DNA from: Giardia intestinalis
Taxonomy: Eukaryota
DNA length: 64,000 bases
Strand: one strand, 5' to 3'
Assembly: GCA_000002435.2 (NCBI GenBank)
Contig: CM018793.1
The position numbers and the translations under genes are program-made. Positions 9,624 to 31,809 of the stretch are shown one piece after another (the first letter of the stretch is position 1; the number at the start of each line of letters is the position of its first letter). The notes beneath the pieces were generated by a model that made no database searches, was not told where the DNA came from, and saw only the letters and a program-made list of their open reading frames with translations.

Positions 9624-9776
9624 CGCTGTTTAATAAATGAGTGTGGCCGGGCCCCTGCGCCGGGCTGGCGCTCGGGGGCGTCGGCGGGCTCTGGGAGGGC
9701 CGACTCTGCCCCGGGCCCCGGAGCCTTAAGTGCCCTCCGCGGGCAAGGACTGCCCGAAATTATTCGGGGAAGGCGT

Positions 9777-10172
9777 TTACAGGCGGTCCCCCTGGTCCTC
9801 CTCCAGGACGACGGCGGAGACGCCCCCGAACTGCTGGCAGAACGCGAGCATGTGGTAGAGGAGGGGGATCTCGTTGTTGATCGCGTCGGGCGACAGGCCG
9901 AGGGTCCGGATCAGGTACTCCCGGCTGACGGGGAGCGTCGGGATCCCCGCCTCGACCTCGAGGGTGCCGGCGGTGGAGTGGAGGCCCATGAAGCGGAAGA
10001 ACTCCGTGATGAGCTCCAGGATCACGTACGTCTCGCCCTCGGGCTGCGGGGGCGGGCTGGCCTTGTGGCCCTCGAGCGCGCGGAGGACGGACTCGCGGAC
10101 CTTCGCCTGCAGGACCGCGAGCTCGCCCCGCTGCTTCATGTTCTGGAGGATGATGCTCTTGATCTCGTCCAT
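9777..10172 (-). CDS. FOPNL: FOR20/FOPNL-like protein (FOP N-terminal dimerisation domain with LisH; centriolar/basal-body protein)
   Basis: From MDEIKSIILQNMKQRGELAVLQAKVRESVLRALE...YVILELITEFFRF...LPVSREYLIRTLGL...IPLLYHMLAFC the protein aligns by eye to FOR20 (LKARIRAEVFNAL...NELIREYLEF...VPLDRQFLIHELN...IPLLYGIL). The real ATG is at 10170-10172 with aaaataaagacc just upstream. The ORF track's longer form uses an upstream non-conserved Met. Confidence 0.7.
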   Translation of the reverse strand: MDEIKSIILQNMKQRGELAVLQAKVRESVLRALEGHKASPPPQPEGETYVILELITEFFRFMGLHSTAGTLEVEAGIPTLPVSREYLIRTLGLSPDAINNEIPLLYHMLAFCQQFGGVSAVVLEEDQGDRL

Positions 10173-13453: not shown

Positions 13454-13543
13454 AGCCATTACTCTGTCCCGACGAGCCGATCCCGCCTGCCACTCGTCGC
13501 CCGTGCAGCACTGTCCCTCCGGGCACACGACAAGGCGCCTCGT

Positions 13544-15691
13544 GTGCGACCAGGCCAGCGGGCTCCCCCCTGGGGCAGCCCTCGGAGTGGGAGTCTCAGA
13601 GAGGAGGCCGCCGGGGCACCCCCACCCGCTGCGCGCAATCCGGTCCACACCACAGCCTCTCTACTGATACCCCTGTTCGTGGTGAGCGCGCTTGCAGTAA
13701 CCTGCCAGACCGGCAAGTGCGAGACGGTCGGATCAGCCGAGATTTGCACCCAGTGCAGGGCCGGGGGCGTCCCGGTCGACGGCTTCTGCTGGCCCCCCGG
13801 CTCCCCCCAGGCCGCGGCAGCCGGGTGCACCGAGGAAGACGGGGCTACCCTCGACAAGACGGCAACCACCTGCGGGAAGTGCGGCGACGGGTACTTCCTC
13901 TTCATGGGAGGGTGCTACAAGGTAGGACAAGATCCTGGCAGTGAGATATGCACAACAGCCAGTGATGGAGTGTGTACTACTTGTAAGACAGATAACGGCC
14001 TGTTCAAGAACCCGGCTACAGCACCGAAGCCTGGTAGTGAGTGCATCCTGTGCTCTGATATCAAGGGAGCAGATGGATATACGGGAGTAGAGAACTGCGC
14101 ACAGTGTACCAAGTCAGACAGTAACAAGGGGGCTGCCACGTGTACAGAATGCCAAGATGGATATTATAAAGATGCTAAAGGCGCATGTGTACAATGCCAG
14201 GGGAACTGCGCCACTTGTGAGACATCGGCGACCCAGTGTACCTCTTGTAAAGCGGGCTTCTATCTGAAGGACGGCAATAGCTGTGTGGCAGAAGGAGAAT
14301 GCACAAACACCGTTTATCCTGACCCAGAGTCGGGGAAGTGCAAGGCATGTAGTACAATAACTGATTGCACAGAATGCTCCTTCGACAAGGCCACGGGGAA
14401 GCCTCAGTGCACAGCCTGCGGTAGTCAGAAGACCCCCAGGACGACCCTTGATGGGACCTCGACCTGCGTCGATAAAACGCTTGACGGGTGCAAGGGCGCT
14501 GACGGGGCCTTATTTATGAAGGACGATACCACATGCGCCCTTTGCGGCGATGCGTCCCCTGGCGCTGGCGCAAACGATAAGGGGATTGCCGGGTGTAAGA
14601 CATGTACTAAGCAGCAAAGTCAGAAACCAGAATGCACAAGTTGTTTGGATGGATACTTCTTTGAACAGTCATCAAAGACTTGTTCGGCTTGTGCCTCCAA
14701 CTGTGCCACCTGCACGTCAGCTGATGTGTCAACTTGTACTGAGTGCCTTCCTGGGTACTTCCTAAAAACCGAGGGTGAAACGAAGTGTGCTGCATGCGAC
14801 AGTACACCAGATGGTGGCCGCGAAGGGTGCAGTCTATGTTCTAGCAACGGTGGATTTAAGTGCACTGAATGTAAGCCTAACTATAAGAAGCAGTCCAATG
14901 GAGGAGCAGGGGATGACTATACGTGTACAAAGGTGTGTGAAGACCCCACTGCTTGTGGGGGGACAGCTGGCTCTTGTGATGCCATAGTGATCGGTGCTGA
15001 TGGAAAGGAGCTTCACTATTGCTCATACTGTGGGGAGAGTACTAAGGTACCAATTGATGGCATCTGTGCTACTGATAAGAAAGGTAATACTTGTAACAGT
15101 CATACATGTACACAGTGTGCTCAAGGGTACTTCTTATACATGAATGGCTGTTACAAGGTTGGTCAAGAACCAGGTAGTCATATGTGCAAGACAGCAGGTA
15201 ATACTGGGATATGCACAGAAGCGGCCAACAATAGATACTTCGTAGTCCCAGAGGCAACCAATGCTCAGCAGTCTGTACTAGCATGTGGTAACCCATTAGG
15301 CACACTAATAGGTACTCAAGACAATGCTAAGGCATACGTGGGGGTCGAGGGCTGCTCCCAGTGTACAGCCCCAGTAGCTCTGACTGAGGCTGGTATGGCT
15401 GCCGCTACATGCACCTCCTGTGACAGTGATAAGAAGCCCAACAAGGATGGCACCGGGTGTGTGCTGTGCTCTGTGGGTGATTGCAAGAGCTGTGTGGTGG
15501 ATGATGTGTGTGGGGAGTGTGTTGATGGGTACAGTCTAGACAGCAGTGGGACCTCCTGTGTGTCTATGAGTACCAACAGGAGCGGGCTCTCCACGGGGGC
15601 CATCGCGGGGATCTCCGTCGCTGTGGTCGTCGTCGTGGGGGGCCTCGTGGGCTTCCTCTGCTGGTGGTTCATATGTAGAGGGAAGGCATGA
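13544..15691 (+). CDS. Variant-specific surface protein (VSP) copy V1; has a signal-peptide-like N-terminal region but no in-frame ATG, so possibly a pseudogene
   Basis: Classic VSP: SLLIPLFVVSALAVTCQTGKCETVG...CTQC..GGVPVDGFC, many CxxC motifs, GGCY motifs, a TM segment (AIAGISVAVVVVVGGLVGFLCWWF) and a CRGKA tail. The ORF-track start is GTG. The signal-peptide codons begin at about 13656 but the Met position is tct (Ser). The 5' 380 bp are GC-rich. Confidence 0.8.
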   Translation: MRPGQRAPPWGSPRSGSLREEAAGAPPPAARNPVHTTASLLIPLFVVSALAVTCQTGKCETVGSAEICTQCRAGGVPVDGFCWPPGSPQAAAAGCTEEDGATLDKTATTCGKCGDGYFLFMGGCYKVGQDPGSEICTTASDGVCTTCKTDNGLFKNPATAPKPGSECILCSDIKGADGYTGVENCAQCTKSDSNKGAATCTECQDGYYKDAKGACVQCQGNCATCETSATQCTSCKAGFYLKDGNSCVAEGECTNTVYPDPESGKCKACSTITDCTECSFDKATGKPQCTACGSQKTPRTTLDGTSTCVDKTLDGCKGADGALFMKDDTTCALCGDASPGAGANDKGIAGCKTCTKQQSQKPECTSCLDGYFFEQSSKTCSACASNCATCTSADVSTCTECLPGYFLKTEGETKCAACDSTPDGGREGCSLCSSNGGFKCTECKPNYKKQSNGGAGDDYTCTKVCEDPTACGGTAGSCDAIVIGADGKELHYCSYCGESTKVPIDGICATDKKGNTCNSHTCTQCAQGYFLYMNGCYKVGQEPGSHMCKTAGNTGICTEAANNRYFVVPEATNAQQSVLACGNPLGTLIGTQDNAKAYVGVEGCSQCTAPVALTEAGMAAATCTSCDSDKKPNKDGTGCVLCSVGDCKSCVVDDVCGECVDGYSLDSSGTSCVSMSTNRSGLSTGAIAGISVAVVVVVGGLVGFLCWWFICRGKA

Positions 15692-15698
15692 CTCAGGT

Positions 15699-15705
15699 AG
15701 TGAAT
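15699..15705 (+). terminator. Giardia-type polyadenylation signal AGTGAAT (AGTRAAY) 8 nt after the VSP stop codon
   Basis: The same motif sits at the same offset after every intact VSP stop, at 17496, 19387, 21261, 23152, 25043 and 26917. Confidence 0.6.
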
Positions 15706-15844
15706 GCTATACAATGTGTGATAGTGTGTGATAATGGGTGATAGAGGGTGATAGTGGAGTGAGATATGTACAAAGGCCAGTAATGGACTGTGCACTGCTT
15801 GTAAGACAGATAACAAGTACATATTCCAGAACAGGGCAGACAAG

Positions 15845-17488
15845 GTGACCCCTGGTAGTGAGTGCATCCTCTGTCATGATGCCACGGGAGCGAATGAGAA
15901 CAAAGGAGTGGCCAACTGCCTCAAGTGCACGGCACCTGGTGGCAATACAGGACCTGCCACGTGTACAGAGTGTCAAGCAGGGTTCGTTACGAAGGACAGT
16001 GCATGTGAGAAGTGCGGAGAGGGCTGCTCTGCCTGCTCAGAGAGTGATCCAAATCAATGCTCGGCATGCCTTGAGGGGAAGTATCTGAAGGGTAATGCAT
16101 GTGTAGGACCCACTGAATGTGGTGATGGTAAGTATGCAGATCCAACAACAGGCCAATGCAAGGCATGTGGAATACCTGACTGCGCCACCTGTGAGTACAA
16201 TGCAACTATTAGTCAACCACAGTGTAAGACCTGCAATAGCAATAAGATGGTGAAGACAGCGGCAGACGGGACGACCACTTGTGTCGATGATGGTGGATGT
16301 ACAAATGGCAATACGCACTTTGTTGAAGGTACTAGCCCAAAGCTTTGTGTCCCGTGCGGTGATACTACAAATGGTGGGATTCTAGGTTGTAGTACTTGCT
16401 CCTCTAAAACTACATGTACAAAGTGCCTCGACGGATATTACGATAATGATGATAGTCAAGATACAGCTACGTGTGTCGCTTGTGGTGGACAAAATTGTGA
16501 GACATGTGCTAAGGCTACGAGTGATAAATGCACGACCTGTAAGCCTGGATTCTTCTTGAAGGATAGCTCCTCTGGTGAGTGCATCTCATGTAGTGACACA
16601 GCAAATGGTGGTCGCGAAGGCTGCAGTGTCTGCTCGAATGATAGTGGATTCAAGTGCACTGACTGTAAGCCTAACTATAAGAAGCAGCTTAATGGAGGAG
16701 CAGATGATGACTATACATGTGTGAAGACCTGTGAGGATGACACTGCTTGTGGTGGTACCTCTGGTGCTTGCGATGCCATAGTGATCAATGAGAATGGAAA
16801 GGAGCTTCACTACTGTTCATACTGTGGGGATAACAGTAAGTATCCTATAGATGGAAAATGTACAAATGTCAATGCTGGAAATACAGGATGCACCAATAAT
16901 GTCTGCAAGTCTTGTACTGCAGGGTACTTCCTCTATATGGGAGGGTGTTATAAGATTGGTGCAGAACCAGGCAACCTCATGTGCAAGACCGCTGAAGGTG
17001 GTAAGTGCACTGCTGTTAATGCCAATAATAGGTACTTCGTAGTCCCAGAGGCACAGGCTACTGATCAGTCTGTGTTGGCATGTGGCAACCCCCTTGGCAC
17101 ACTAGTAGGCACTGATAGTACCTCTAAGGCATATGTGGGGGTAGATGGCTGCTCCCAGTGTACAGCCCCAGTAGCTCTGACTGAGGCTGGTATGGCTGCC
17201 GCTACATGCACCTCCTGTGACAGTGATAAGGTGCCCAACAAGGATGGCACCGGGTGTGTGCTGTGCTCTGTGGGTGATTGCAAGAGCTGTGTGGTGGATG
17301 ATGTGTGTGGGGAGTGTGTTGATGGGTACAGTCTAGACAGCAGTGGGACCTCCTGTGTGTCTATGAGTACCAACAGGAGCGGGCTCTCCACGGGGGCCAT
17401 CGCGGGGATCTCCGTCGCTGTGGTCGTCGTCGTGGGGGGCCTCGTGGGCTTCCTCTGCTGGTGGTTCATATGTAGAGGGAAGGCATGA
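15845..17488 (+). CDS. VSP copy V2, 5'-truncated (no ATG or signal peptide); candidate silent or pseudogene copy
   Basis: In-frame VSP homology (ICTKASNGLCTACKTDNKYIFQ...) begins at about 15755, right after the spacer stop codons. The track start is GTG. Ends ...WWFICRGKA then TGA. Confidence 0.8.
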   Translation: MTPGSECILCHDATGANENKGVANCLKCTAPGGNTGPATCTECQAGFVTKDSACEKCGEGCSACSESDPNQCSACLEGKYLKGNACVGPTECGDGKYADPTTGQCKACGIPDCATCEYNATISQPQCKTCNSNKMVKTAADGTTTCVDDGGCTNGNTHFVEGTSPKLCVPCGDTTNGGILGCSTCSSKTTCTKCLDGYYDNDDSQDTATCVACGGQNCETCAKATSDKCTTCKPGFFLKDSSSGECISCSDTANGGREGCSVCSNDSGFKCTDCKPNYKKQLNGGADDDYTCVKTCEDDTACGGTSGACDAIVINENGKELHYCSYCGDNSKYPIDGKCTNVNAGNTGCTNNVCKSCTAGYFLYMGGCYKIGAEPGNLMCKTAEGGKCTAVNANNRYFVVPEAQATDQSVLACGNPLGTLVGTDSTSKAYVGVDGCSQCTAPVALTEAGMAAATCTSCDSDKVPNKDGTGCVLCSVGDCKSCVVDDVCGECVDGYSLDSSGTSCVSMSTNRSGLSTGAIAGISVAVVVVVGGLVGFLCWWFICRGKA

Positions 17489-17555
17489 CTCAGGTAGTGA
17501 ATGCTATACAATGTGTGATAATGGGTAATAGAGGGTGATAGTGTGATAGTGGAGT

Positions 17556-19379
17556 GTGATATGTACAAAGGCCAGTAATGGACTGTGCACTGCTTGTAAG
17601 ACAGATAACAAGTACATATTCCAGAACAGGGCAGACAAGGTGACTCCTGGTGGGGAGTGCATCTTGTGCTCTGATATCAAGGGAGCGAATGGATATACGG
17701 GAGTGGCCAACTGTCTCAAGTGTACGGCACCAGGGAATGCAGGACCTGCCACGTGTAATACCTGTCAAGAGGGGTACTTCCTAAACAACAAGCTTTGTAA
17801 GCCATGCGAGGGGAACTGTGCCACCTGTGAGACATCGGCGACCCAGTGCACATCGTGTCCAGAGGGGAAGTACCTCAATGGGAATCAATGTACTGATAGC
17901 TGTGGTAATGATAAGTATGCTGATCCAGAGTCTGGAACGTGCATGGCATGTAGTACAATAACTGATTGCACGGCATGCAAGTACAATGCGACTGTCAGTA
18001 AGCCCCAGTGCACTAACTGTGGCAGTAAGAAGGTGAAGACGGCCATCGATGGCACCACAACGTGCGTTGATGTGAGCTCTGGATGCCAGGATGCTGATCA
18101 CTTCAAGGCAGATGGTGATGCTGCGTGTGTCTTGTGCAGCGATACCAGCGGAGATAATGAGAACACAAATAAGGGACTGGAGGGCTGTAGTGCGTGCACA
18201 AAACCTAATAACAACCAACCACCCGCTTGTACCGGATGCTTACCCGGATATTACGATTCTGCGCCCGGCACCTTCAAGTGTAAGGCCTGTGCTCCCAACT
18301 GTGCCACCTGCACTCAAATTGGAGACGATAAGTGCTTGACCTGTAAGGAGGGGTTCTTCATGAAAGTCAGTGGCCCCGGTGAGTGCGTCCCTTGTAGTGA
18401 TACAGCTAAGGATGGCATCGATGGATGTGCAACGTGCACCTTCTCTAGCTCGTTGACCTGCAACTCCTGTAAGGTGAACTACAAGCAGAGCGGTACCCCT
18501 TCAACTGGGGTCACATGCACCAGGACTTGTGAAGATGATACGGCCTGCGGGGGTACCTCTGGTGCCTGCGATGCCATGATAATTGATGATAAGGGCACCA
18601 CAAAGCACTACTGTTCATACTGTGGGGATAGTTCACAAGCTCCTATAGATGGACTATGCACTAATAACAAAGAAAGTAATACTTGTACTAGTCATACATG
18701 TACATCATGTGCTGCTAACTACTTCCTCTATATGGGTGGCTGTTATAGCACTCAGAAGGCTCCTGGCAACTACATGTGCAAGACCGCAGGTAACAATGGG
18801 ATATGCACAGAAGCGGCCAACAATAGGTACTTCGTAGTCCCAGAAGCAACCAATGCTCAACAGTCTGTCCTGGCATGTGGTAACCCCCTTGGCACACTGA
18901 CAGGCACTGGTGATACTGCTAAGGCATACGTTGGGGTGGATGGCTGCTCCCAGTGCACAGCCCCAGCAGCTCCATCTGATGGTGGTATGACCCCCGCTGT
19001 GTGCACCTCTTGTGACAATAGTAAGAAGCCCAACCTGGCTGGGAGCGGGTGCTTCCCATGTGCCGTTGTTGGATGCTCGCACTGTGATATGGACAACAAG
19101 TGCTCCGCCTGCACAGAGGGGGGCAAGAGACCCAACAAGGAAGGGACAGCATGCTTTGAATGTAACGTGGAGGGGTGCGCTTATTGTAGTGGTGCTAATA
19201 AGTGTGAAGAGTGCAGCGATGGGTTCAAATTAGAGGGTGACAAGTGCGTGTCTTCTGGCACCAACAGGAGCGGGCTGTCTACTGGCGCCATCGCGGGCAT
19301 CTCCGTCGCTGTGGTCGTCGTCGTGGGGGGCCTCGTGGGCTTCCTCTGCTGGTGGTTCCTCTGCAGGGGGAAGGCGTGA
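17556..19379 (+). CDS. VSP copy V3 (type A, copy 1), 5'-truncated with no ATG
   Basis: 607-aa ORF whose start is GTG, immediately after a spacer TAG. Ends WWFLCRGKA. Nearly identical to copies at 21321 and 23212. Confidence 0.8.
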   Translation: MICTKASNGLCTACKTDNKYIFQNRADKVTPGGECILCSDIKGANGYTGVANCLKCTAPGNAGPATCNTCQEGYFLNNKLCKPCEGNCATCETSATQCTSCPEGKYLNGNQCTDSCGNDKYADPESGTCMACSTITDCTACKYNATVSKPQCTNCGSKKVKTAIDGTTTCVDVSSGCQDADHFKADGDAACVLCSDTSGDNENTNKGLEGCSACTKPNNNQPPACTGCLPGYYDSAPGTFKCKACAPNCATCTQIGDDKCLTCKEGFFMKVSGPGECVPCSDTAKDGIDGCATCTFSSSLTCNSCKVNYKQSGTPSTGVTCTRTCEDDTACGGTSGACDAMIIDDKGTTKHYCSYCGDSSQAPIDGLCTNNKESNTCTSHTCTSCAANYFLYMGGCYSTQKAPGNYMCKTAGNNGICTEAANNRYFVVPEATNAQQSVLACGNPLGTLTGTGDTAKAYVGVDGCSQCTAPAAPSDGGMTPAVCTSCDNSKKPNLAGSGCFPCAVVGCSHCDMDNKCSACTEGGKRPNKEGTACFECNVEGCAYCSGANKCEECSDGFKLEGDKCVSSGTNRSGLSTGAIAGISVAVVVVVGGLVGFLCWWFLCRGKA

Positions 19380-19387
19380 CTTAGGTA

Positions 19388-21253
19388 GTGAATGCTGTAC
19401 AATGTGTGATAATGGGTGATAGTATGATAGTGGTGTGTGGGGGTGATAGTGATAGTACGGGACTTCTCTTCATGGGCGGGTGCTACAAGACAGAGAGTCA
19501 GCCCGGCAGTGACATATGCACACAGGCTGAGGGAGGAGTGTGCACTGCTTGTAAGGCAGATAGTCAGTACATATTCCAGAATGGGGCAGAGAAGGTGACC
19601 CCTGGTGGGGAGTGCATACTGTGCTGGGATACTATAGATAGAAACGGGGTCATGGGAGTCAAGGACTGTCTCAAGTGTACGGCACCAGCTAATAACAAGG
19701 GGGCTGCCACGTGTACAGAATGCCAAGCAGGGTACGTTAAGGATAACGCTTCTAATACGTGTAAGAAGTGCGGAGAGGGCTGCTCCGAGTGCTCAGAGAG
19801 TGATCAGCAATCGTGTACTGCCTGCTTTGAAGGGAAGTTCCTGAAGGCTGACAGTAAGACTTGTGTAGAGGCTAATCAATGTGGTAATGATAAGTATGCA
19901 GACCCGACAACAGGCCAATGTAAGGCATGCACAGACACAAGTGTCAATGAATGTGCTACGTGTACATACAGCGACACTCTTCAGAAGCCGGTGTGCACTG
20001 GATGCGGGGGCCAAAAGCCGCTTCTCAAGCAAAAAGCTGATGGCACAGTAGAATGTGTTGATGATGGCGGCTGCCCTACTGGTGATACCCACTTCCTTGA
20101 ACAATATCCAAAGGCTTGTGTCCCATGTGGTGATAATACACGAGGCGGCGTTGTCGGATGTAGCACCTGCACTGCAAAGGGAGGGTGCTCTGCCTGTTTA
20201 GCTGGGTATATAAAAGAGGGAAGTAGCGACCCAGTTACATGCACCCCCTGTCACGCCAACTGTGCTACATGCTCTGCTGCTGGCAAGGATAAGTGTGATA
20301 CATGCAAGCCAGGGTACTTCATGAAAGGCAGTGGTCCTACTGGTGAGTGCGTTGCTTGTGACAGTGAAGCCGACAATGGCATCGAGGGCTGTGGTGCATG
20401 CACAAACGATGGCGGTGCTTTCAAGTGCACCGATTGCAAGCCCAACTATCGCAAGCAGAGCGATAGCAGTTCTGGCTCTGTTACATGTACAAAGGTGTGT
20501 GAAGATGATACTGCCTGCGGGGGCACTTCTGGTGCCTGCGATGCAATAGTGATTGATGCTAATGGAAAGGAGCTTCATTATTGTTCTTATTGTGGGGATA
20601 ACAGTAAGGTACCAATTGATGGCATCTGTGCTACTGATAAGAAAGGTAATACTTGTAACAGTCATACATGTACACAGTGTGCTCAAGGGTACTTCTTATA
20701 CATGAATGGCTGTTACAAGGTTGGTCAAGAACCAGGTAGTCATATGTGCAAGACAGCAGGTAATACTGGGATATGCACAGAAGCGGCCAACAATAGATAC
20801 TTCGTAGTCCCAGAGGCAACCAATGCTCAGCAGTCTGTACTAGCATGTGGTAACCCATTAGGCACACTAATAGGTACTCAAGACAATGCTAAGGCATACG
20901 TGGGAGTGGATGGCTGCTCCCAGTGTACAGCCCCAGTAGCTCTGACTGATGGTGGTATGACCCCTGCTATATGTACCTCCTGTGACAGTGATAAGAAGCC
21001 CAACAAGGATGGCACCGGGTGTGTGCTGTGCTCTGTGGGTGATTGCAAGAGCTGTGTGGTGGATGATGTGTGTGGGGAGTGTGTTGATGGGTACAGTCTA
21101 GACAGCAGTGGGACCTCCTGTGTGTCTATGAGTACCAACAGGAGCGGGCTCTCCACGGGGGCCATCGCGGGGATCTCCGTCGCTGTGGTCGTCGTCGTGG
21201 GGGGCCTCGTGGGCTTCCTCTGCTGGTGGTTCATATGTAGAGGGAAGGCATGA
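19388..21253 (+). CDS. VSP copy V4 (type B, copy 1), lacks a signal peptide; first in-frame ATG at 19412
   Basis: 621-aa ORF whose start is GTG. The reading frame runs through the translated TGATAGTG spacer repeat (VIMGDSMIVVCGGDSDS). Ends WWFICRGKA. Confidence 0.8.
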   Translation: MNAVQCVIMGDSMIVVCGGDSDSTGLLFMGGCYKTESQPGSDICTQAEGGVCTACKADSQYIFQNGAEKVTPGGECILCWDTIDRNGVMGVKDCLKCTAPANNKGAATCTECQAGYVKDNASNTCKKCGEGCSECSESDQQSCTACFEGKFLKADSKTCVEANQCGNDKYADPTTGQCKACTDTSVNECATCTYSDTLQKPVCTGCGGQKPLLKQKADGTVECVDDGGCPTGDTHFLEQYPKACVPCGDNTRGGVVGCSTCTAKGGCSACLAGYIKEGSSDPVTCTPCHANCATCSAAGKDKCDTCKPGYFMKGSGPTGECVACDSEADNGIEGCGACTNDGGAFKCTDCKPNYRKQSDSSSGSVTCTKVCEDDTACGGTSGACDAIVIDANGKELHYCSYCGDNSKVPIDGICATDKKGNTCNSHTCTQCAQGYFLYMNGCYKVGQEPGSHMCKTAGNTGICTEAANNRYFVVPEATNAQQSVLACGNPLGTLIGTQDNAKAYVGVDGCSQCTAPVALTDGGMTPAICTSCDSDKKPNKDGTGCVLCSVGDCKSCVVDDVCGECVDGYSLDSSGTSCVSMSTNRSGLSTGAIAGISVAVVVVVGGLVGFLCWWFICRGKA

Positions 21254-21320
21254 CTCAGGTAGTGAATGCTATACAATGTGTGATAATGGGTAATAGAGGG
21301 TGATAGTGTGATAGTGGAGT

Positions 21321-23144
21321 GTGATATGTACAAAGGCCAGTAATGGACTGTGCACTGCTTGTAAGACAGATAACAAGTACATATTCCAGAACAGGGCAGA
21401 CAAGGTGACTCCTGGTGGGGAGTGCATCTTGTGCTCTGATATCAAGGGAGCGAATGGATATACGGGAGTGGCCAACTGTCTCAAGTGTACGGCACCAGGG
21501 AATGCAGGACCTGCCACGTGTAATACCTGTCAAGAGGGGTACTTCCTAAACAACAAGCTTTGTAAGCCATGCGAGGGGAACTGTGCCACCTGTGAGACAT
21601 CGGCGACCCAGTGCACATCGTGTCCAGAGGGGAAGTACCTCAATGGGAATCAATGTACTGATAGCTGTGGTAATGGTAAGTATGCTGATCCAGAGTCTGG
21701 AACGTGCATGGCATGTAGTACAATAACTGATTGCACGGCATGCAAGTACAATGCGACTGTCAGTAAGCCCCAGTGCACTAACTGTGGCAGTAAGAAGGTG
21801 AAGACGGCCATCGATGGCACCACAACGTGCGTTGATGTGAGCTCTGGATGCCAGGATGCTGATCACTTCAAGGCAGATGGTGATGCTGCGTGTGTCTTGT
21901 GCAGCGATACCAGCGGAGATAATGAGAACACAAATAAGGGACTGGAGGGCTGTAGTGCGTGCACAAAACCTAATAACAACCAACCACCCGCTTGTACCGG
22001 ATGCTTACCCGGATATTACGATTCTGCGCCCGGCACCTTCAAGTGTAAGGCCTGTGCTCCCAACTGTGCCACCTGCACTCAAATTGGAGACGATAAGTGC
22101 TTGACCTGTAAGGAGGGGTTCTTCATGAAAGTCAGTGGCCCCGGTGAGTGCGTCCCTTGTAGTGATACAGCTAAGGATGGCATCGATGGATGTGCAACGT
22201 GCACCTTCTCTAGCTCGTTGACCTGCAACTCCTGTAAGGTGAACTACAAGCAGAGCGGTACCCCTTCAACTGGGGTCACATGCACCAGGACTTGTGAAGA
22301 TGATACGGCCTGCGGGGGTACCTCTGGTGCCTGCGATGCCATGATAATTGATGATAAGGGCACCACAAAGCACTACTGTTCATACTGTGGGGATAGTTCA
22401 CAAGCTCCTATAGATGGACTATGCACTAATAACAAAGAAAGTAATACTTGTACTAGTCATACATGTACATCATGTGCTGCTAACTACTTCCTCTATATGG
22501 GTGGCTGTTATAGCACTCAGAAGGCTCCTGGCAACTACATGTGCAAGACCGCAGGTAACAATGGGATATGCACAGAAGCGGCCAACAATAGGTACTTCGT
22601 AGTCCCAGAAGCAACCAATGCTCAACAGTCTGTCCTGGCATGTGGTAACCCCCTTGGCACACTGACAGGCACTGGTGATACTGCTAAGGCATACGTTGGG
22701 GTGGATGGCTGCTCCCAGTGCACAGCCCCAGCAGCTCCATCTGATGGTGGTATGACCCCCGCTGTGTGCACCTCTTGTGACAATAGTAAGAAGCCCAACC
22801 TGGCTGGGAGCGGGTGCTTCCCATGTGCCGTTGTTGGATGCTCGCACTGTGATATGGACAACAAGTGCTCCGCCTGCACAGAGGGGGGCAAGAGACCCAA
22901 CAAGGAAGGGACAGCATGCTTTGAATGTAACGTGGAGGGGTGCGCTTATTGTAGTGGTGCTAATAAGTGTGAAGAGTGCAGCGATGGGTTCAAATTAGAG
23001 GGTGACAAGTGCGTGTCTTCTGGCACCAACAGGAGCGGGCTCTCCACGGGGGCCATCGCGGGGATCTCCGTCGCTGTGGTCGTCGTCGTGGGGGGCCTCG
23101 TGGGCTTCCTCTGCTGGTGGTTCATATGTAGAGGGAAGGCATGA
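21321..23144 (+). CDS. VSP copy V5 (type A, copy 2)
   Basis: Differs from A1 and A3 by point or patch changes (CGNGKYADP instead of CGNDKYADP). Its 3' end is the B/V2 type (WWFICRGKA). Confidence 0.8.
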   Translation: MICTKASNGLCTACKTDNKYIFQNRADKVTPGGECILCSDIKGANGYTGVANCLKCTAPGNAGPATCNTCQEGYFLNNKLCKPCEGNCATCETSATQCTSCPEGKYLNGNQCTDSCGNGKYADPESGTCMACSTITDCTACKYNATVSKPQCTNCGSKKVKTAIDGTTTCVDVSSGCQDADHFKADGDAACVLCSDTSGDNENTNKGLEGCSACTKPNNNQPPACTGCLPGYYDSAPGTFKCKACAPNCATCTQIGDDKCLTCKEGFFMKVSGPGECVPCSDTAKDGIDGCATCTFSSSLTCNSCKVNYKQSGTPSTGVTCTRTCEDDTACGGTSGACDAMIIDDKGTTKHYCSYCGDSSQAPIDGLCTNNKESNTCTSHTCTSCAANYFLYMGGCYSTQKAPGNYMCKTAGNNGICTEAANNRYFVVPEATNAQQSVLACGNPLGTLTGTGDTAKAYVGVDGCSQCTAPAAPSDGGMTPAVCTSCDNSKKPNLAGSGCFPCAVVGCSHCDMDNKCSACTEGGKRPNKEGTACFECNVEGCAYCSGANKCEECSDGFKLEGDKCVSSGTNRSGLSTGAIAGISVAVVVVVGGLVGFLCWWFICRGKA

Positions 23145-23211
23145 CTCAGGTAGTGAATGCTATACAATGTGTGATAATGGGTAATAGAGGGTGATAGTGT
23201 GATAGTGGAGT

Positions 23212-25035
23212 GTGATATGTACAAAGGCCAGTAATGGACTGTGCACTGCTTGTAAGACAGATAACAAGTACATATTCCAGAACAGGGCAGACAAGGTGAC
23301 TCCTGGTGGGGAGTGCATCTTGTGCTCTGATATCAAGGGAGCGAATGGATATACGGGAGTGGCCAACTGTCTCAAGTGTACGGCACCAGGGAATGCAGGA
23401 CCTGCCACGTGTAATACCTGTCAAGAGGGGTACTTCCTAAACAACAAGCTTTGTAAGCCATGCGAGGGGAACTGTGCCACCTGTGAGACATCGGCGACCC
23501 AGTGCACATCGTGTCCAGAGGGGAAGTACCTCAATGGGAATCAATGTACTGATAGCTGTGGTAATGATAAGTATGCTGATCCAGAGTCTGGAACGTGCAT
23601 GGCATGTAGTACAATAACTGATTGCACGGCATGCAAGTACAATGCGACTGTCAGTAAGCCCCAGTGCACTAACTGTGGCAGTAAGAAGGTGAAGACGGCC
23701 ATCGATGGCACCACAACGTGCGTTGATGTGAGCTCTGGATGCCAGGATGCTGATCACTTCAAGGCAGATGGTGATGCTGCGTGTGTCTTGTGCAGCGATA
23801 CCAGCGGAGATAATGAGAACACAAATAAGGGACTGGAGGGCTGTAGTGCGTGCACAAAACCTAATAACAACCAACCACCCGCTTGTACCGGATGCTTACC
23901 CGGATATTACGATTCTGCGCCCGGCACCTTCAAGTGTAAGGCCTGTGCTCCCAACTGTGCCACCTGCACTCAAATTGGAGACGATAAGTGCTTGACCTGT
24001 AAGGAGGGGTTCTTCATGAAAGTCAGTGGCCCCGGTGAGTGCGTCCCTTGTAGTGATACAGCTAAGGATGGCATCGATGGATGTGCAACGTGCACCTTCT
24101 CTAGCTCGTTGACCTGCAACTCCTGTAAGGTGAACTACAAGCAGAGCGGTACCCCTTCAACTGGGGTCACATGCACCAGGACTTGTGAAGATGATACGGC
24201 CTGCGGGGGTACCTCTGGTGCCTGCGATGCCATGATAATTGATGATAAGGGCACCACAAAGCACTACTGTTCATACTGTGGGGATAGTTCACAAGCTCCT
24301 ATAGATGGACTATGCACTAATAACAAAGAAAGTAATACTTGTACTAGTCATACATGTACATCATGTGCTGCTAACTACTTCCTCTATATGGGTGGCTGTT
24401 ATAGCACTCAGAAGGCTCCTGGCAACTACATGTGCAAGACCGCAGGTAACAATGGGATATGCACAGAAGCGGCCAACAATAGGTACTTCGTAGTCCCAGA
24501 AGCAACCAATGCTCAACAGTCTGTCCTGGCATGTGGTAACCCCCTTGGCACACTGACAGGCACTGGTGATACTGCTAAGGCATACGTTGGGGTGGATGGC
24601 TGCTCCCAGTGCACAGCCCCAGCAGCTCCATCTGATGGTGGTATGACCCCCGCTGTGTGCACCTCTTGTGACAATAGTAAGAAGCCCAACCTGGCTGGGA
24701 GCGGGTGCTTCCCATGTGCCGTTGTTGGATGCTCGCACTGTGATATGGACAACAAGTGCTCCGCCTGCACAGAGGGGGGCAAGAGACCCAACAAGGAAGG
24801 GACAGCATGCTTTGAATGTAACGTGGAGGGGTGCGCTTATTGTAGTGGTGCTAATAAGTGTGAAGAGTGCAGCGATGGGTTCAAATTAGAGGGTGACAAG
24901 TGCGTGTCTTCTGGCACCAACAGGAGCGGGCTGTCTACTGGCGCCATCGCGGGCATCTCCGTCGCTGTGGTCGTCGTCGTGGGGGGCCTCGTGGGCTTCC
25001 TCTGCTGGTGGTTCCTCTGCAGGGGGAAGGCGTGA
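23212..25035 (+). CDS. VSP copy V6 (type A, copy 3), protein identical to A1
   Basis: 607-aa ORF. It is part of the second copy of the 3.77 kb duplicated unit. Confidence 0.8.
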   Translation: MICTKASNGLCTACKTDNKYIFQNRADKVTPGGECILCSDIKGANGYTGVANCLKCTAPGNAGPATCNTCQEGYFLNNKLCKPCEGNCATCETSATQCTSCPEGKYLNGNQCTDSCGNDKYADPESGTCMACSTITDCTACKYNATVSKPQCTNCGSKKVKTAIDGTTTCVDVSSGCQDADHFKADGDAACVLCSDTSGDNENTNKGLEGCSACTKPNNNQPPACTGCLPGYYDSAPGTFKCKACAPNCATCTQIGDDKCLTCKEGFFMKVSGPGECVPCSDTAKDGIDGCATCTFSSSLTCNSCKVNYKQSGTPSTGVTCTRTCEDDTACGGTSGACDAMIIDDKGTTKHYCSYCGDSSQAPIDGLCTNNKESNTCTSHTCTSCAANYFLYMGGCYSTQKAPGNYMCKTAGNNGICTEAANNRYFVVPEATNAQQSVLACGNPLGTLTGTGDTAKAYVGVDGCSQCTAPAAPSDGGMTPAVCTSCDNSKKPNLAGSGCFPCAVVGCSHCDMDNKCSACTEGGKRPNKEGTACFECNVEGCAYCSGANKCEECSDGFKLEGDKCVSSGTNRSGLSTGAIAGISVAVVVVVGGLVGFLCWWFLCRGKA

Positions 25036-25043
25036 CTTAGGTA

Positions 25044-26909
25044 GTGAATGCTGTACAATGTGTGATAATGGGTGATAGTATGATAGTGGTGTGTGGGGGT
25101 GATAGTGATAGTACGGGACTTCTCTTCATGGGCGGGTGCTACAAGACAGAGAGTCAGCCCGGCAGTGACATATGCACACAGGCTGAGGGAGGAGTGTGCA
25201 CTGCTTGTAAGGCAGATAGTCAGTACATATTCCAGAATGGGGCAGAGAAGGTGACCCCTGGTGGGGAGTGCATACTGTGCTGGGATACTATAGATAGAAA
25301 CGGGGTCATGGGAGTCAAGGACTGTCTCAAGTGTACGGCACCAGCTAATAACAAGGGGGCTGCCACGTGTACAGAATGCCAAGCAGGGTACGTTAAGGAT
25401 AACGCTTCTAATACGTGTAAGAAGTGCGGAGAGGGCTGCTCCGAGTGCTCAGAGAGTGATCAGCAATCGTGTACTGCCTGCTTTGAAGGGAAGTTCCTGA
25501 AGGCTGACAGTAAGACTTGTGTAGAGGCTAATCAATGTGGTAATGATAAGTATGCAGACCCGACAACAGGCCAATGTAAGGCATGCACAGACACAAGTGT
25601 CAATGAATGTGCTACGTGTACATACAGCGACACTCTTCAGAAGCCGGTGTGCACTGGATGCGGGGGCCAAAAGCCGCTTCTCAAGCAAAAAGCTGATGGC
25701 ACAGTAGAATGTGTTGATGATGGCGGCTGCCCTACTGGTGATACCCACTTCCTTGAACAATATCCAAAGGCTTGTGTCCCATGTGGTGATAATACACGAG
25801 GCGGCGTTGTCGGATGTAGCACCTGCACTGCAAAGGGAGGGTGCTCTGCCTGTTTAGCTGGGTATATAAAAGAGGGAAGTAGCGACCCAGTTACATGCAC
25901 CCCCTGTCACGCCAACTGTGCTACATGCTCTGCTGCTGGCAAGGATAAGTGTGATACATGCAAGCCAGGGTACTTCATGAAAGGCAGTGGTCCTACTGGT
26001 GAGTGCGTTGCTTGTGACAGTGAAGCCGACAATGGCATCGAGGGCTGTGGTGCATGCACAAACGATGGCGGTGCTTTCAAGTGCACCGATTGCAAGCCCA
26101 ACTATCGCAAGCAGAGCGATAGCAGTTCTGGCTCTGTTACATGTACAAAGGTGTGTGAAGATGATACTGCCTGCGGGGGCACTTCTGGTGCCTGCGATGC
26201 AATAGTGATTGATGCTAATGGAAAGGAGCTTCATTATTGTTCTTATTGTGGGGATAACAGTAAGGTACCAATTGATGGCATCTGTGCTACTGATAAGAAA
26301 GGTAATACTTGTAACAGTCATACATGTACACAGTGTGCTCAAGGGTACTTCTTATACATGAATGGCTGTTACAAGGTTGGTCAAGAACCAGGTAGTCATA
26401 TGTGCAAGACAGCAGGTAATACTGGGATATGCACAGAAGCGGCCAACAATAGATACTTCGTAGTCCCAGAGGCAACCAATGCTCAGCAGTCTGTACTAGC
26501 ATGTGGTAACCCATTAGGCACACTAATAGGTACTCAAGACAATGCTAAGGCATACGTGGGGGTCGAGGGCTGCTCCCAGTGTACAGCCCCAGTAGCTCTG
26601 ACTGAGGCTGGTATGGCTGCCGCTACATGCACCTCCTGTGACAGTGATAAGAAGCCCAACAAGGATGGCACCGGGTGTGTGCTGTGCTCTGTGGGTGATT
26701 GCAAGAGCTGTGTGGTGGATGATGTGTGTGGGGAGTGTGTTGATGGGTACAGTCTAGACAGCAGTGGGACCTCCTGTGTGTCTATGAGTACCAACAGGAG
26801 CGGGCTCTCCACGGGGGCCATCGCGGGGATCTCCGTCGCTGTGGTCGTCGTCGTGGGGGGCCTCGTGGGCTTCCTCTGCTGGTGGTTCATATGTAGAGGG
26901 AAGGCATGA
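25044..26909 (+). CDS. VSP copy V7 (type B, copy 2)
   Basis: 621 aa. Near-identical to B1 except for a 3' patch (VEGCSQCTAPVALTEAGMAAATC) that matches V1. Confidence 0.8.
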   Translation: MNAVQCVIMGDSMIVVCGGDSDSTGLLFMGGCYKTESQPGSDICTQAEGGVCTACKADSQYIFQNGAEKVTPGGECILCWDTIDRNGVMGVKDCLKCTAPANNKGAATCTECQAGYVKDNASNTCKKCGEGCSECSESDQQSCTACFEGKFLKADSKTCVEANQCGNDKYADPTTGQCKACTDTSVNECATCTYSDTLQKPVCTGCGGQKPLLKQKADGTVECVDDGGCPTGDTHFLEQYPKACVPCGDNTRGGVVGCSTCTAKGGCSACLAGYIKEGSSDPVTCTPCHANCATCSAAGKDKCDTCKPGYFMKGSGPTGECVACDSEADNGIEGCGACTNDGGAFKCTDCKPNYRKQSDSSSGSVTCTKVCEDDTACGGTSGACDAIVIDANGKELHYCSYCGDNSKVPIDGICATDKKGNTCNSHTCTQCAQGYFLYMNGCYKVGQEPGSHMCKTAGNTGICTEAANNRYFVVPEATNAQQSVLACGNPLGTLIGTQDNAKAYVGVEGCSQCTAPVALTEAGMAAATCTSCDSDKKPNKDGTGCVLCSVGDCKSCVVDDVCGECVDGYSLDSSGTSCVSMSTNRSGLSTGAIAGISVAVVVVVGGLVGFLCWWFICRGKA

Positions 26910-26966
26910 CTCAGGTAGTGAATGCTATACAATGTGTGATAATGGGTGATAGTATGATAGTGGAGT

Positions 26967-28658
26967 GTGATATGCACAGCAGCCAGTAGTGGAGTGTGCA
27001 CTGAGTGTAATACAAATAGTCAGTACATATTCCAGAACCCTGCTACAGCACCAGAGAAGGGTAGCGAGTGCATCCTGTGCTGGGATACCAAGGGAGCAGA
27101 TGGATATACGGGAGTGGAGAACTGCGCCACATGTACAGCACCAAGCACCCCAACGGCTGCCACGTGTGATACCTGTCAAGATGGATACTATAAAGATGGT
27201 AACGGCGCATGTACCAAATGTCATACCGACTGCGAGACGTGTAATGGAGCTGATCAGAATGCGTGCACCTCTTGTAAGGATGGAAAGTATCTGAAAGGTG
27301 GAAATACGTGTTCATCTACATGTGAAGGAAACACTTACCCTGACCCTGTGACAAGGACATGCAAGGATTCTAGTATAGTAGATTGCACCACGTGTGAGTA
27401 CAACCCGGCAACTGGGGGCCCAAAGTGCACAGCCTGTAACGGTAAGATAGTCAAGGAAGAGGCCGACGGGACGACAACGTGCGTCGAGGCAAATGGGTGC
27501 GCTCGAGATGGCCAAGCAGGCACGCACTTTCTGAGTGACAACAACGATAAGTGCATTCTGTGTAGCGATACAACAACAGGAACAGGAGCAAGTAACCAAG
27601 GAAAGGACAACTGTAAGACATGTACTAAGGCTGGTTCAGGACAAGCACCGGAATGTTCAGAGTGTCTGGATGGATTCTTCTTTGAAAAGTCATCAAAGAC
27701 TTGTTCGGCTTGTCATCAGAACTGTGCTACGTGCTCTGAAGCTACGACAGAAAATAGGTGCGAGTCCTGCTATCCAGGATACTTCTTGGTTGTATCTGGT
27801 GCTGATAAAAAGTGTGTCCCATGCGATGATGCACAGAATCAAGGGATCGAGGGCTGTGCCGAGTGCACTGGTACTACAGGATCCCTCAAGTGCACAAAGT
27901 GCAAGCCTAACAGGAAGCTCGCTGGAAACGAGGGGGACCTCACATGCACAGAGAAGACCTGTGAAGATGATACTGCCTGCGGGGGGACATCTGGAGCCTG
28001 CGATGCCATAGTGATTGATGATCAGGGCAATGCAAAGCACTACTGTTCCTATTGTGGGGATAACAGTAAGGTACCAATTGATGGGAAGTGTGTTGATAGT
28101 GGTCAAAAGAATGGGAATACTTGTACCAGTCACATATGTACACAATGCACCAACAACTACTTCCTCTACATGGGAGGGTGTTATAAAGCAACAGAGGTGC
28201 CTGGTAGCTATATGTGCAAGACAGCAGATAATAAGGGGATATGCACAGAGGCGGCCAACAATAAGTACTTCATAGTCCCAGGGGCATCCAATCAGAATCA
28301 GTCTGTACTAGCATGTGGTAACCCCCTAGGCACACTAGTAGATACTAAGGCATACGTGGGGGTCGAGGGCTGCTCTCAGTGTACAGCCCCGACAGCTCTA
28401 ACAACAGCTGGCATGACCGCTGCTGTGTGTACCTCTTGTGGTGAGAGTAAGAAGCCCAACAAGGATGGCACTGGGTGTGTGCTGTGCTCTGTGGGTGATT
28501 GCAAGAGCTGTGTGATGGATAATATATGTGGGGAGTGCAACAGTGGCTTCAGCATAGACAATGGTAAGTGCGTGTCCTCTGGCAGTAATAGGAGCGGGCT
28601 CTCCACGGGGGCCATCGCGGGGATCTCCGTGGCTGGTCTCGTTGGGCTTCTGTGTTAG
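26967..28658 (+). pseudogene. VSP copy V8, truncated at both ends (TM disrupted, CRGKA tail and poly(A) signal lost)
   Basis: Protein ends ...GAIAGISVAGLVGLLC then a stop. Relative to intact copies, about 18 nt are deleted and the sequence then diverges into GC-rich DNA at about 28650. There is no AGTGAAT after the stop. Confidence 0.75.
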
Positions 28659-29276
28659 TGATGACTACTGGCCCGGGGTGGGCATCCGCTGTCCATCCGC
28701 CCGGTGCTGCTACGTGCCCGTGGAGGTCTGGACGCCCGCTGCAACCAGGGTGGAGAGAGTCGGCGCTGCAGCACCCCCGCTGGGTCTCGCCGTGAGTGAG
28801 GGCAGAAGCTCTCGGGGGCCCCGGGGGCAATGCCTGATGTGCAGAGCAGTGGACAGCTCAGCCGTGGATTTAAAATAGCGCGTCGCTCGATGGCGCTCCC
28901 CGGCCTGCCGAAGCAGCGGGTGCTCGACTGCGTAGCATAGGCGCCGAACCACGCCTGCAGCCGTGGGAGGCCGGCGCAGCATGGGCGGTCCCTGCACCGG
29001 GTGGCTCGGACCCGCCACCCGGCCGTTGCGTGCAGGCACCGCCCACTCGGTCCGCTCGGCTGGCCTCTGCAAAAGACCGGCACACGGAGTGGCAGGACCT
29101 GTGCACCCCCGAGGGACAGGGGCTCGACTCGCCCTCTGAGGATCGCTCCGTGCCGACTCCGGGCCCGCCGTTCGACCACGCGGAGGCCGGGCATCCGGGA
29201 GCCTCCACAGCAGAGGTAGTGTGGCGGATCCTTGCTGATCCGGACACATTAAAAACTTGTATCCTCAGGGATTCAC

Positions 29277-31778: not shown

Positions 31779-31809
31779 CCCAGTAAACGGAGCCGTCAGA
31801 GCGGACGGC

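Follow-up and report, generated by a model that had tools for sequence, protein, structure and literature searches.

Organization of the array

The window analyzed here is the whole stretch of 64,000 nucleotides, and all positions refer to it. Between positions 13454 and 28658 the plus strand contains an array of eight head-to-tail VSP frames, V1 to V8, each delimited from stop to stop. The window belongs to the WB C6 reference chromosome of Giardia intestinalis, and the ORFs that border the array are exact matches to proteins of this reference (KAE8304725, KAE8304726 and KAE8304727). The features of the locus are as follows.

12125–13453, plus strand: upstream flanking ORF, GL50803_00d114445 (KAE8304725), hypothetical protein, exact match
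13454–15691, plus strand: V1, first member; TM domain, CRGKA tail and stop codon intact
13739–14932, plus strand: tract within V1 (aa 96–493) shared with KAE8304683/XP_001705078, 398 aa with one mismatch
15692–15754, plus strand: spacer 1; extended VSP poly(A) signal, then a GTGATAGTGG-type 10-nt repeat
15755–17488, plus strand: V2, 5'-truncated psiVSP; 3' end intact
17550–19379, plus strand: V3 (type A), 5'-truncated psiVSP; FLCRGKA tail, identical to V6
19385–21253, plus strand: V4 (type B), 5'-truncated psiVSP; alternative junction '..CGGDSDSTGLLFMGGCYK', about residue 88
21315–23144, plus strand: V5 (type A), body one SNP different from V3
23206–25035, plus strand: V6 (type A), exact copy of V3
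25041–26909, plus strand: V7 (type B), near-copy of V4
26961–28658, plus strand: V8, truncated at both ends; 5' junction of the V2/V3 type
17489–17549, 19380–19456, 21254–21314, 23145–23205, 25036–25112 and 26910–26960, plus strand: spacers homologous to spacer 1
28710–29249, minus strand: downstream flanking ORF, GL50803_00d60176 (KAE8304726), hypothetical protein, exact match
29277–31778, plus strand: downstream flanking gene, High cysteine membrane protein Group 3 (KAE8304727)

All of the copies match the Pfam VSP family PF03302 (E-values between 1e-20 and 1e-47 for V1, V2, V3, V4 and V8) and possess the VSP domain with its CXXC-rich ectodomain. The TM domain, the CRGKA tail and the stop codon are present in seven of the eight copies (V1–V7). 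Each of these seven is followed by ACTYAGGTAGTGAATGC, which includes the final base of the stop codon and represents the extended VSP poly(A) signal, ACUUAGRUAGURAAYRY, located close to the stop codon (2022 preprint). In V8, an 18-nt deletion affects the TM segment and the frame ends in '...LC*' where the other copies have LCWWF. Because this stop falls inside the TM segment, V8 has neither the CRGKA tail nor the poly(A) signal, and its 3' side directly adjoins the GC-rich flank. Consequently, the intact 3' ends that a preliminary description attributed to the entire array are a property of V1–V7 and not of V8. The C-terminal 162 and 81 aa of V8 correspond to XP_001703928 and XP_001704228, respectively, of the old annotation.

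The eight copies are thus adjacent to one another and separated by short spacers of 57–77 nt, each of which links a copy to the preceding copy's poly(A) signal. The spacers had been described as approximately 65 bp long with stops in all frames; the length is of this order and the frame of the downstream copy is closed, but the spacer between V7 and V8 leaves one frame free of stops. A resemblance of the spacer to a VSP 5' end was also considered (CAATGTGTGATA compared with the canonical CAATGTTGTTGATA of a P15 VSP). No claim of a relic is made, because by our own estimate chance would produce a one-mismatch Inr-like 7-mer in about 13% of spacers of this kind.

The sole protein accession of the WB reference between KAE8304725 and KAE8304727 is KAE8304726, and therefore none of the eight copies corresponds to an annotated protein. 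Judged by its protein accessions, the current WB reference annotation handles the array as non-protein-coding. A search with Rfam found no RNA families inside the array.

Missing 5' ends

A bona fide VSP requires an initiator ATG and a signal peptide (Xu 2020; 2022 preprint). This combination is found in none of the copies, with signal peptides judged by eye from the translated sequence, and an ATG at the head of the VSP homology is found in 0 of 8. The copies are therefore psiVSPs and not VSPs, which bears out the preliminary description of eight VSP copies lacking a usable ATG and signal peptide. The GTG starts reported for the ORF track are indeed present in all copies; they are an artefact, as the ORF tool used the bacterial start set. 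The PyAATGTT initiator (Inr) is absent throughout 13454–28658; the rest of the window has 13 occurrences, counting both strands. Like the downstream members of vsp linear arrays, the downstream copies here lack both the Inr and a proper start codon. The region upstream of V1 is GC-rich and contains neither an AT-rich element nor an Inr.

The first member retains a signal-peptide-like segment, 'SLLIPLFVVSALA', without an ATG, and reads GCC TCT at 13655–13660. The identity of the residue that replaces Met depends on the protein to which V1 is aligned. Alignment with the 'MLLI...' VSPs places Ser (TCT, 13658–13660) at this position, as first described, but alignment with the closest relative, 'MFQLIPLF...', places the preceding Ala (GCC) there. 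The orthologous contigs of DH (AII) likewise have no ATG, with ATT instead, in a comparison that covers the 5' end of V1 only, as the DH contig ends about 680 bp past the flank gene.

The other seven copies are cut at two fixed points, near residues 88 and 106 of a full-length VSP. A single start near residue 95 had been proposed for V2–V8; these copies do begin inside the mature VSP, but at two points and not at one. V2, V3, V5, V6 and V8 begin at a point equivalent to about residue 106 in the full-length VSP closest to them ('WSEICTKASNG' in V2), and V4 and V7 begin about 18 residues earlier. In V4 and V7 the frame is open through nearly the whole 77-nt spacer, and in-frame ATGs at 19412 and 25068, in spacer-derived sequence, give ATG-initiated frames of 613 aa. 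Both junction types recur in further array members, in WB as well as in other assemblies. The loci P0027 (ENA isolate) and P0121 (P15) contain isolated VSPs and not arrays, and the 'VNDPAGV...' class of GS-B is cut at a GC-rich flank and not at an array junction.

Cryptic expression of the copies could be envisioned from the ATGs of V4 and V7, through read-through of a TAG into V1, or by means of an unrecognised spliced leader. V1 shares its reading frame with the ORF at 12125–13453, from which it is separated by a single TAG, and an earlier study, cited in the discussion of the 2022 preprint, placed 'VSPs' without a signal peptide at the plasma membrane. However, a shared frame is a one-in-three coincidence, the membrane-localisation claim was rejected by the 2022 preprint, and no hydrophobic signal segment is found downstream of either ATG. 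A spliced 5' exon, which the preliminary description had recognized as incompatible with its reading, was looked for and rejected, as 13000–29300 contains neither a Giardia 3' splice/branch motif nor GTATGT. Furthermore, the protein collection contains no ATG-initiated product of these copies, and the reference annotation has a protein for 0 of 8 copies. Expression by any of these routes appears extremely improbable.

A role that does not require a protein has also to be weighed. Read-through or antisense transcripts of the array could give rise to dsRNA and small RNAs, which would feed the proposed silencing of VSP mRNAs by Dicer, RdRP and Argonaute. The array has seven copies of the conserved 3' end common to VSP mRNAs, VSP genes have abundant antisense transcripts (2022 preprint), and the literature proposes as siRNA sources the VSP-like 'Girep' repeats, which are non-coding and transcribed from both strands. 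The array is nevertheless very improbable as a source of regulatory RNA: a promoter-like element is found neither within nor upstream of it, the poly(A) signals after V1–V7 would terminate read-through transcripts, and the psiVSP arrays of G. muris are reported to be essentially non-transcribed. Open frames and conserved cysteines, moreover, are not needed for an RNA role.

Recombination and exchange

The array contains exact repeats of 3,536, 1,365, 681 and 678 bp. In the largest of these, 17369–20904 is identical to 23025–26560; together with the identity of 20975–21291 and 26631–26947, this repeat makes up a duplicated segment of ~3.9 kb whose two copies lie 5,656 bp apart from start to start. 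V5, V6 and V7 had been described as exact repeats of earlier copies. This is correct for V6, which is identical to V3, but V5 has 12 differences from V3 and V7 has 18 differences from V4, and these occur in clustered patches. The last ~110 nt of V5 are of the V2/V4 type (FICRGKA). At 20905–20974, V4 has 11 clustered differences from V7, with the V3-type base at some of them. The last 649 nt of V7 and the first 32 nt of the next spacer (26261–26941) are identical to 15043–15723 of V1.

A block that starts 350–550 nt before the end of a copy, crosses the spacer and extends ~200 nt into the next copy is near-identical across the array, while the central antigen-coding bodies share only 64–71% identity. 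The copies are truncated and promoter-less, with conserved flanks that are usable for homologous recombination. The sequence shows that the array is a recombination mosaic and that recombination has both built it and kept it uniform. The multi-kilobase exact repeats, together with the short patches, demonstrate that unequal crossing-over and gene conversion took place recently.

Exchange is also seen with genes outside the array. KAE8304683, which shares the tract of 398 aa with V1, is an intact full-length VSP on the same chromosome, and V1 diverges from it on both sides of the tract. Comparison of the two sequences shows that V1 and KAE8304683 have exchanged about 1.2 kb, with either direction possible, and it follows that array members do exchange with expressible genes. 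Another mosaic is XP_001703933 of the old annotation, in which 228 aa exact to V3 are followed by a different 3' half. The most amplified types are A (V3, V5 and V6) and B (V4 and V7), and the protein collection contains no full-length relative above 63% amino acid identity for either of them. Nothing therefore indicates that these types ever donated to an expressible gene. The proposal of a silent-cassette archive is sustained in part: the copies are start-less and promoter-less, their 3' ends are largely kept and exchange is real, but the full-length VSPs with A- or B-type segments for which the proposal suggested a search did not appear above 63% identity in the protein collection.

The copies fall into five sequence types that are separated by dS values of 0.8–1.3 with dN/dS of 0.25–0.36, a ratio that cannot separate a sequence selected as an archive from one that diverged while functional. 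There are no internal stops, and 67 of the 69 ungapped cysteine columns are invariant across the five types. Neutral drift at the dS of the five types would leave no stop-free copy. On the recent time scale (WB–DH dS of 0.038), a 1.8-kb frame would stay open by chance in about a quarter of trials or more. Selection on the array does not follow from the open frames; the bodies could have accumulated their differences as functional genes, with the headless junction spread later by conversion.

These results bear directly on whether the array is a genomic junkyard, in which it would simply have resulted from unequal crossing-over between the 3' ends of VSPs, an alternative named in Adam 2010. The lack of a promoter, Inr and ATG, the decayed 3' end of V8 and the missing close relatives of types A and B are all compatible with such an origin, as are a loss of the V1 start that predates the AI/AII split (DH also has no ATG) and the possibility that chance kept the frames open over recent time. 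It is more difficult to reconcile with five types that, at dS ~1, all keep open frames and their cysteine columns, and with the recent tract that V1 has in common with an intact VSP. We consider an origin solely as a by-product rather unlikely.

The region is a psiVSP 'linear array' of Giardia intestinalis WB, whose eight tandem genes are not expressible as surface proteins and probably form a pool for occasional exchange. The conserved tail-spacer-head block would be the place where unequal recombination makes the array grow and shrink. The array would be transcriptionally silent, or weakly transcribed at most; we infer this silence, as we do the copy number of the array. Its biological effect, if any, would be that of an in-frame VSP pool from which segments are occasionally exchanged with expressible VSPs over evolutionary time, and it would not act as a switching device within one infection. 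The tract shared by V1 and KAE8304683 and the tracts within the array fit a reservoir that operates over evolutionary time.

A more active archive, in which array bodies are copied segmentwise into expressible VSPs at a rate sufficient to create new antigens within infections or outbreaks, is improbable. The route proposed for it would use the homogenised tail-spacer-head block together with conserved internal motifs, and the V1/KAE8304683 tract would be one such event. The exchange breakpoints are near 'CEDxTACGG' and 'HYCSYCG'. If true, this activity would add a layer of DNA recombination to Giardia antigenic variation, which is now held to be rearrangement-free.

Comparison with known antigen gene arrays

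The observation is real, ordinary and already known. Adam et al. 2010 (BMC Genomics 11:424) described linear arrays with spacers that average 60 bp (overlapping to 241 bp) and downstream members without an Inr, found an Inr in about half of the first members, and already stated the cassette hypothesis. WB has 208 psiVSPs compared with 133 VSPs (Xu et al. 2020, Sci Data 7:38), psiVSP arrays have been proposed as a gene conversion reservoir (Xu et al. 2020; 2022 preprint), and gene-conversion tracts in assemblage A are enriched for VSPs according to the literature. As both the object class and the hypothesis are published, the finding leaves existing knowledge unchanged.

The present array is the same kind of object, from the same organism, as the Giardia lamblia WB linear arrays and psiVSP arrays (Adam 2010; Xu 2020, Sci Data 7:38). 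Shared features include the head-to-tail arrangement, spacers of ~60 bp, downstream members without an Inr or start, conserved 3' ends, closely related pairs within an array and annotation as pseudogenes. In contrast to the arrays of Adam 2010, the first member here also lacks an ATG and Inr. The text of Adam 2010 mentions neither the two fixed points of truncation nor the homogenised tail-spacer-head block nor the map of exact repeats; these are details and not a new kind of object. Tandem VSP copies without signal peptides also make up the psiVSP arrays of Giardia muris, for which phylogeny suggests exchange with intact VSPs and a reservoir has been proposed (Xu et al. 2020, Microb Genom 6:mgen000402). 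Nearly all of the G. muris arrays are at chromosome ends and are non-transcribed, whereas the WB array lies between ordinary genes inside the 64-kb window.

Similar to the WB array, the subtelomeric VSG arrays of Trypanosoma brucei, from which mosaic VSGs are formed, are a large silent archive in which antigen genes and pseudogenes are arrayed and conserved 3' regions are recombination substrates. Dedicated telomeric expression sites exist in T. brucei, where segmental conversion is proven to occur during infection and most VSGs of the archive contain stops or frameshifts. In Giardia no expression site is known, and switching is considered an epigenetic or post-transcriptional process. The only candidate for an expression site in cis is V1, which has no start codon or promoter. 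Borrelia vls and Anaplasma msp2 likewise comprise truncated, promoter-less, in-frame tandem copies with conserved flanks. In each of these systems a single expression locus is frequently converted in the host, segment by segment and in one direction only. We know of no such expression locus or conversion event in Giardia.

The size of the real antigen repertoire of Giardia depends on whether psiVSP arrays are dead weight or serve as a working reserve, and this in turn bears on VSP-based vaccine design. This locus is a convenient test case because of its exact 3.5-kb duplication, its mapped conversion patches and the 1.2-kb exchange of V1 with an intact gene.

The KAE8304725 ORF lies in GC-rich surroundings (~63% GC), has at least three paralogues in WB and shows a dN/dS of 0.46 between WB and DH. 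The array also has a paralogous locus (GL50803_00114445, 0060176 and HCMP).

Organization of the array and its flanks

The open reading frames (ORFs) flanking the array are exact matches to reference proteins of Giardia intestinalis WB clone C6 on a 4,018,654-bp chromosome record. KAE8304726 is the sole accession between those of the flank genes, and none of V1-V8, the eight head-to-tail VSP copies, is therefore annotated as a protein. Nor does the protein collection contain products of the copies that would start at an ATG, except for fragments of V8 from the 2007 annotation. Copy limits were set as stop-to-stop frames on the + strand.

Features of the locus (window coordinates)
12125-13453, upstream flank ORF, hypothetical protein GL50803_00d114445 (KAE8304725), exact match
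13454-15691, +, V1, stop-to-stop frame
15755-17488, +, V2, stop-to-stop frame
17550-19379, +, V3, stop-to-stop frame
19385-21253, +, V4, stop-to-stop frame
21315-23144, +, V5, stop-to-stop frame
23206-25035, +, V6, stop-to-stop frame
25041-26909, +, V7, stop-to-stop frame
26961-28658, +, V8, stop-to-stop frame
28710-29249, minus, KAE8304726 ORF, in the GC-rich flank
29277-31778, downstream flank ORF, High cysteine membrane protein Group 3 (KAE8304727), exact match

The array is embedded in a GC-rich block (8000-13700 and 28660-34000; 55-67% G+C vs 45-50% in the rest of the window), with abrupt changes of composition inside the V1 signal-peptide region and inside the V8 TM region. A second set of flank genes (114445, 60176, HCMP group 3) carries consecutive accessions on the same chromosome (KAE8304796-98), and thus the flank-gene triplet is duplicated. 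The GC-rich flank also contains a full-length match to the H/ACA snoRNA GlsR24 (Rfam RF02487; 9640-9786, minus strand; 166.6 bits, E = 1.6e-43), inside a mechanical ORF with a GTG start (9186-10235). A CXXC-rich ORF of 736 aa with an ATG start (56893-59103, +), some 28 kb downstream, is probably another high-cysteine membrane protein, as no CRGKA tail was found within its range.

Every unit tested matches Pfam PF03302. The preliminary description held that all copies lack an ATG and signal peptide and retain intact 3' ends. The first part stands, as ATG is absent from the expected VSP beginning in all eight copies, and their GTG "starts" are a product of the bacterial start set of the ORF tool. 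The second part applies to V1-V7, which end in a TM segment, CRGKA and a stop codon directly followed by ACTYAGGTAGTGAATGC, the extended VSP poly(A) signal described in a 2022 preprint. It fails for V8, where an 18-nt deletion lies in the TM segment and a stop stands where other copies read LCWWF. Likewise, the single start point described for V2-V8 does not extend to V4 and V7, which use a second junction (3' end of one copy, spacer and 5' start of the next) ~18 residues further upstream; these two copies have in-frame ATGs within spacer-derived sequence, with no hydrophobic segment after them. The PyAATGTT initiator occurs 0 times in the array vs 13 times elsewhere in the window, and Giardia intron motifs are missing from 13000-29300. 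Their sequence shows the copies to be unable to yield a secreted VSP, and cryptic expression is unlikely.

The spacers (57-77 nt) consist of the poly(A) signal and then a GTGATAGTGG-like 10-nt repeat. Each contains CAATGTG (15712-15718; e.g. 17509, 19400, 21274), one mismatch from the initiator, and its ATG opens a 5-codon frame (MCDNG*). The spacer sequence CAATGTGTGATA is similar to the canonical CAATGTTGTTGATA (Inr + Met-Leu-Leu-Ile) of one VSP from P15. Each spacer might be what remains of a VSP 5' end, but the likeness does not exceed chance expectation.

Recombination within the array and exchange with other VSPs

The copies fall into five sequence types, V1, V2, V3/V5/V6 (type A), V4/V7 (type B) and V8, whose bodies share 64-71% nucleotide identity. 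The copies described as exact repeats are so for V6 and V3, whereas V5 differs from V3 at 12 positions and V7 from V4 at 18.

Exact repeats within the array
17369-20904 = 23025-26560, 3,536 bp
17912-19276 = 21677-23041 = 23568-24932, 1,365 bp
15043-15723 = 26261-26941, 681 bp, V1 tail = V7 tail
17233-17910 = 20998-21675, 678 bp

Alignment of the seven junctions shows that most pairs are 90-100% identical across a block made up of the final 350-550 nt of one copy, the spacer and ~200 nt at the start of the next; at the divergent type-A/type-B junction between V3 and V4 this level is reached only in the last ~100 nt. Deeper in the body, past the junction block, identity falls to ~50%. Where copies are near-identical, their differences cluster: V5 departs from V3 by one SNP and by its last ~110 nt, which are of V2/V4 type, and 11 of the changes between V4 and V7 fall in 20905-20974, a stretch in which V7 matches V1 and V2 and V4 has the V3-type base at some positions. 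These patches and repeats are the marks of unequal crossing-over and short-tract gene conversion, with the tail-spacer-head block at their centre; the sequence thus shows that recent unequal recombination and conversion in this conserved block have shaped the array.

Exchange also extends beyond the array. V1 residues 96-493 (nt 13739-14932) differ by one mismatch from the intact 748-aa VSP KAE8304683/XP_001705078, which the same chromosome record carries 42 accession numbers ahead of KAE8304725. Both V1 ends differ from this protein, and the 3' third of V1 is 92-94% identical to V4/V7; thus V1 is chimeric, with the body of an intact gene and the tail of an array copy, and at least one array member evidently exchanged ~1.2 kb with an intact VSP gene. 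XP_001703933, from the old annotation, is identical to V3 over its first 228 residues and then passes into a 3' half that is V8-like yet distinct; it is another mosaic, from elsewhere in the genome or from the older assembly. Among the N-termini of 145 retrieved proteins, both WB junctions ("M..SDSDS..CGGDS..LFFMGGCYK" and "MICTAASNGVCTAC") are also seen in further array members of WB and in ENA assemblies, and therefore these junction types are common to several arrays and were not created at this locus. Full searches of a 5.8-billion-protein collection returned no relative of types A or B above 63% identity with a complete 5' end. Because the amplified types leave no trace in expressible genes, it is still plausible that the array is pure junk.

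Coding constraint and possible roles of the array

All copies are free of internal stops and frameshifts. Among the five types, pairwise dS is 0.8-1.3 and dN/dS 0.25-0.36, with 67 of the 69 ungapped cysteine columns invariant. When 17% of sites were substituted at random, 2,000 trials yielded 0 stop-free copies, so protein-level constraint was in force during most of the divergence. Selection on the array itself is not proved by this constraint; the bodies may have diverged while they were still working genes and only afterwards have been overspread by the headless junction block. At the distance between WB (assemblage AI) and DH (AII) (dS 0.038), chance alone leaves a copy-length frame open in about one in four trials, or more.

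Three observations disfavour a candidate role as an RNA source: a promoter element was looked for and not found, a poly(A) signal is present in every unit, and the open frames, which such a role would not require, are conserved. Most probably, the array would be silent, expanding and contracting by unequal crossing-over, and would at most represent an evolutionary pool of in-frame VSP sequence.

The array is a real feature, but loci of its class are already known, and the reference genome in which it lies is well annotated. According to Adam et al. (2010), more than half of the vsp genes of WB are arranged in "linear arrays" with intergenic regions averaging 60 bp, an Inr on no downstream member, and closely related pairs within arrays. 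The G. muris genome paper described pseudo-VSP (psiVSP) arrays as essentially non-transcribed, with exchange with intact VSPs, and likened them to trypanosome and Pneumocystis archives. Incomplete VSP genes were treated as a sequence reservoir in the 2022 preprint, and assemblage A gene-conversion tracts were found to be enriched in VSPs in a 2025 population study. Furthermore, a 2009 proposal held that "Gireps", VSP-like non-coding repeats transcribed on both strands, are siRNA sources. The observation and both interpretations in the preliminary description, a silent-cassette archive and an RNAi source, were therefore already in print; that reading is correct in outline, and its interpretation was published 10-15 years ago. 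With its breakpoints mapped in detail, the locus is well suited to testing the reservoir hypothesis, which is still unproven.

The V1 head and start-less VSPs elsewhere

The head of V1 (A-S-L-L-I-P-L-F-V-V-S-A-L-A) was described as carrying Ser at the Met position. This holds only against "MLLI..." VSPs; aligned with the closest full-length relative (M-F-Q-L-I-P-L-F-V-A-S-A-L), the missing Met is opposite Ala. Two DH contigs that share the 5' flank read ATT at the V1 Ser codon and also lack an ATG, which places the loss of the start before the AI/AII split. G+C makes up 75% of the 60 nt upstream of V1, where no AT-rich element occurs.

The GL50803_00d114445 ORF and V1 share a reading frame (12125-15691) interrupted by a single TAG (13451-13453), and the two DH contigs conserve both this TAG and the open frame that follows. 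In one of these, an ATG lies 7 codons past the TAG (ACG in WB), and the annotated product is a VSP of 749 aa with an N-terminal extension that is GC-rich and 60 aa long. The shared frame is probably a coincidence combined with first-ATG gene calling; the alternative is stop-codon read-through.

An isolated, non-array VSP in an ENA isolate (NODE_39, 9960-10010) has a V1-type head, "ACCACAGCC TTT CTA CTG ATA CCC", that also lacks an ATG, its first in-frame Met being inside the signal peptide. Start-less heads of the V1-type subfamily are thus not limited to arrays. Many "partial" VSPs among the retrieved proteins begin with "VNDPAGVSIDSLCRP" at ~residue 43 and form a recurrent headless class distinct from the two WB array junctions. 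One was traced to an assemblage B (GS-B) contig (AHHH01000014, 9840-11836); at this one locus examined, the "VNDPAGVSIDSLCRP" start adjoins a GC-rich flank, and a second VSP-like gene with a CRTKR tail lies 46 bp downstream.
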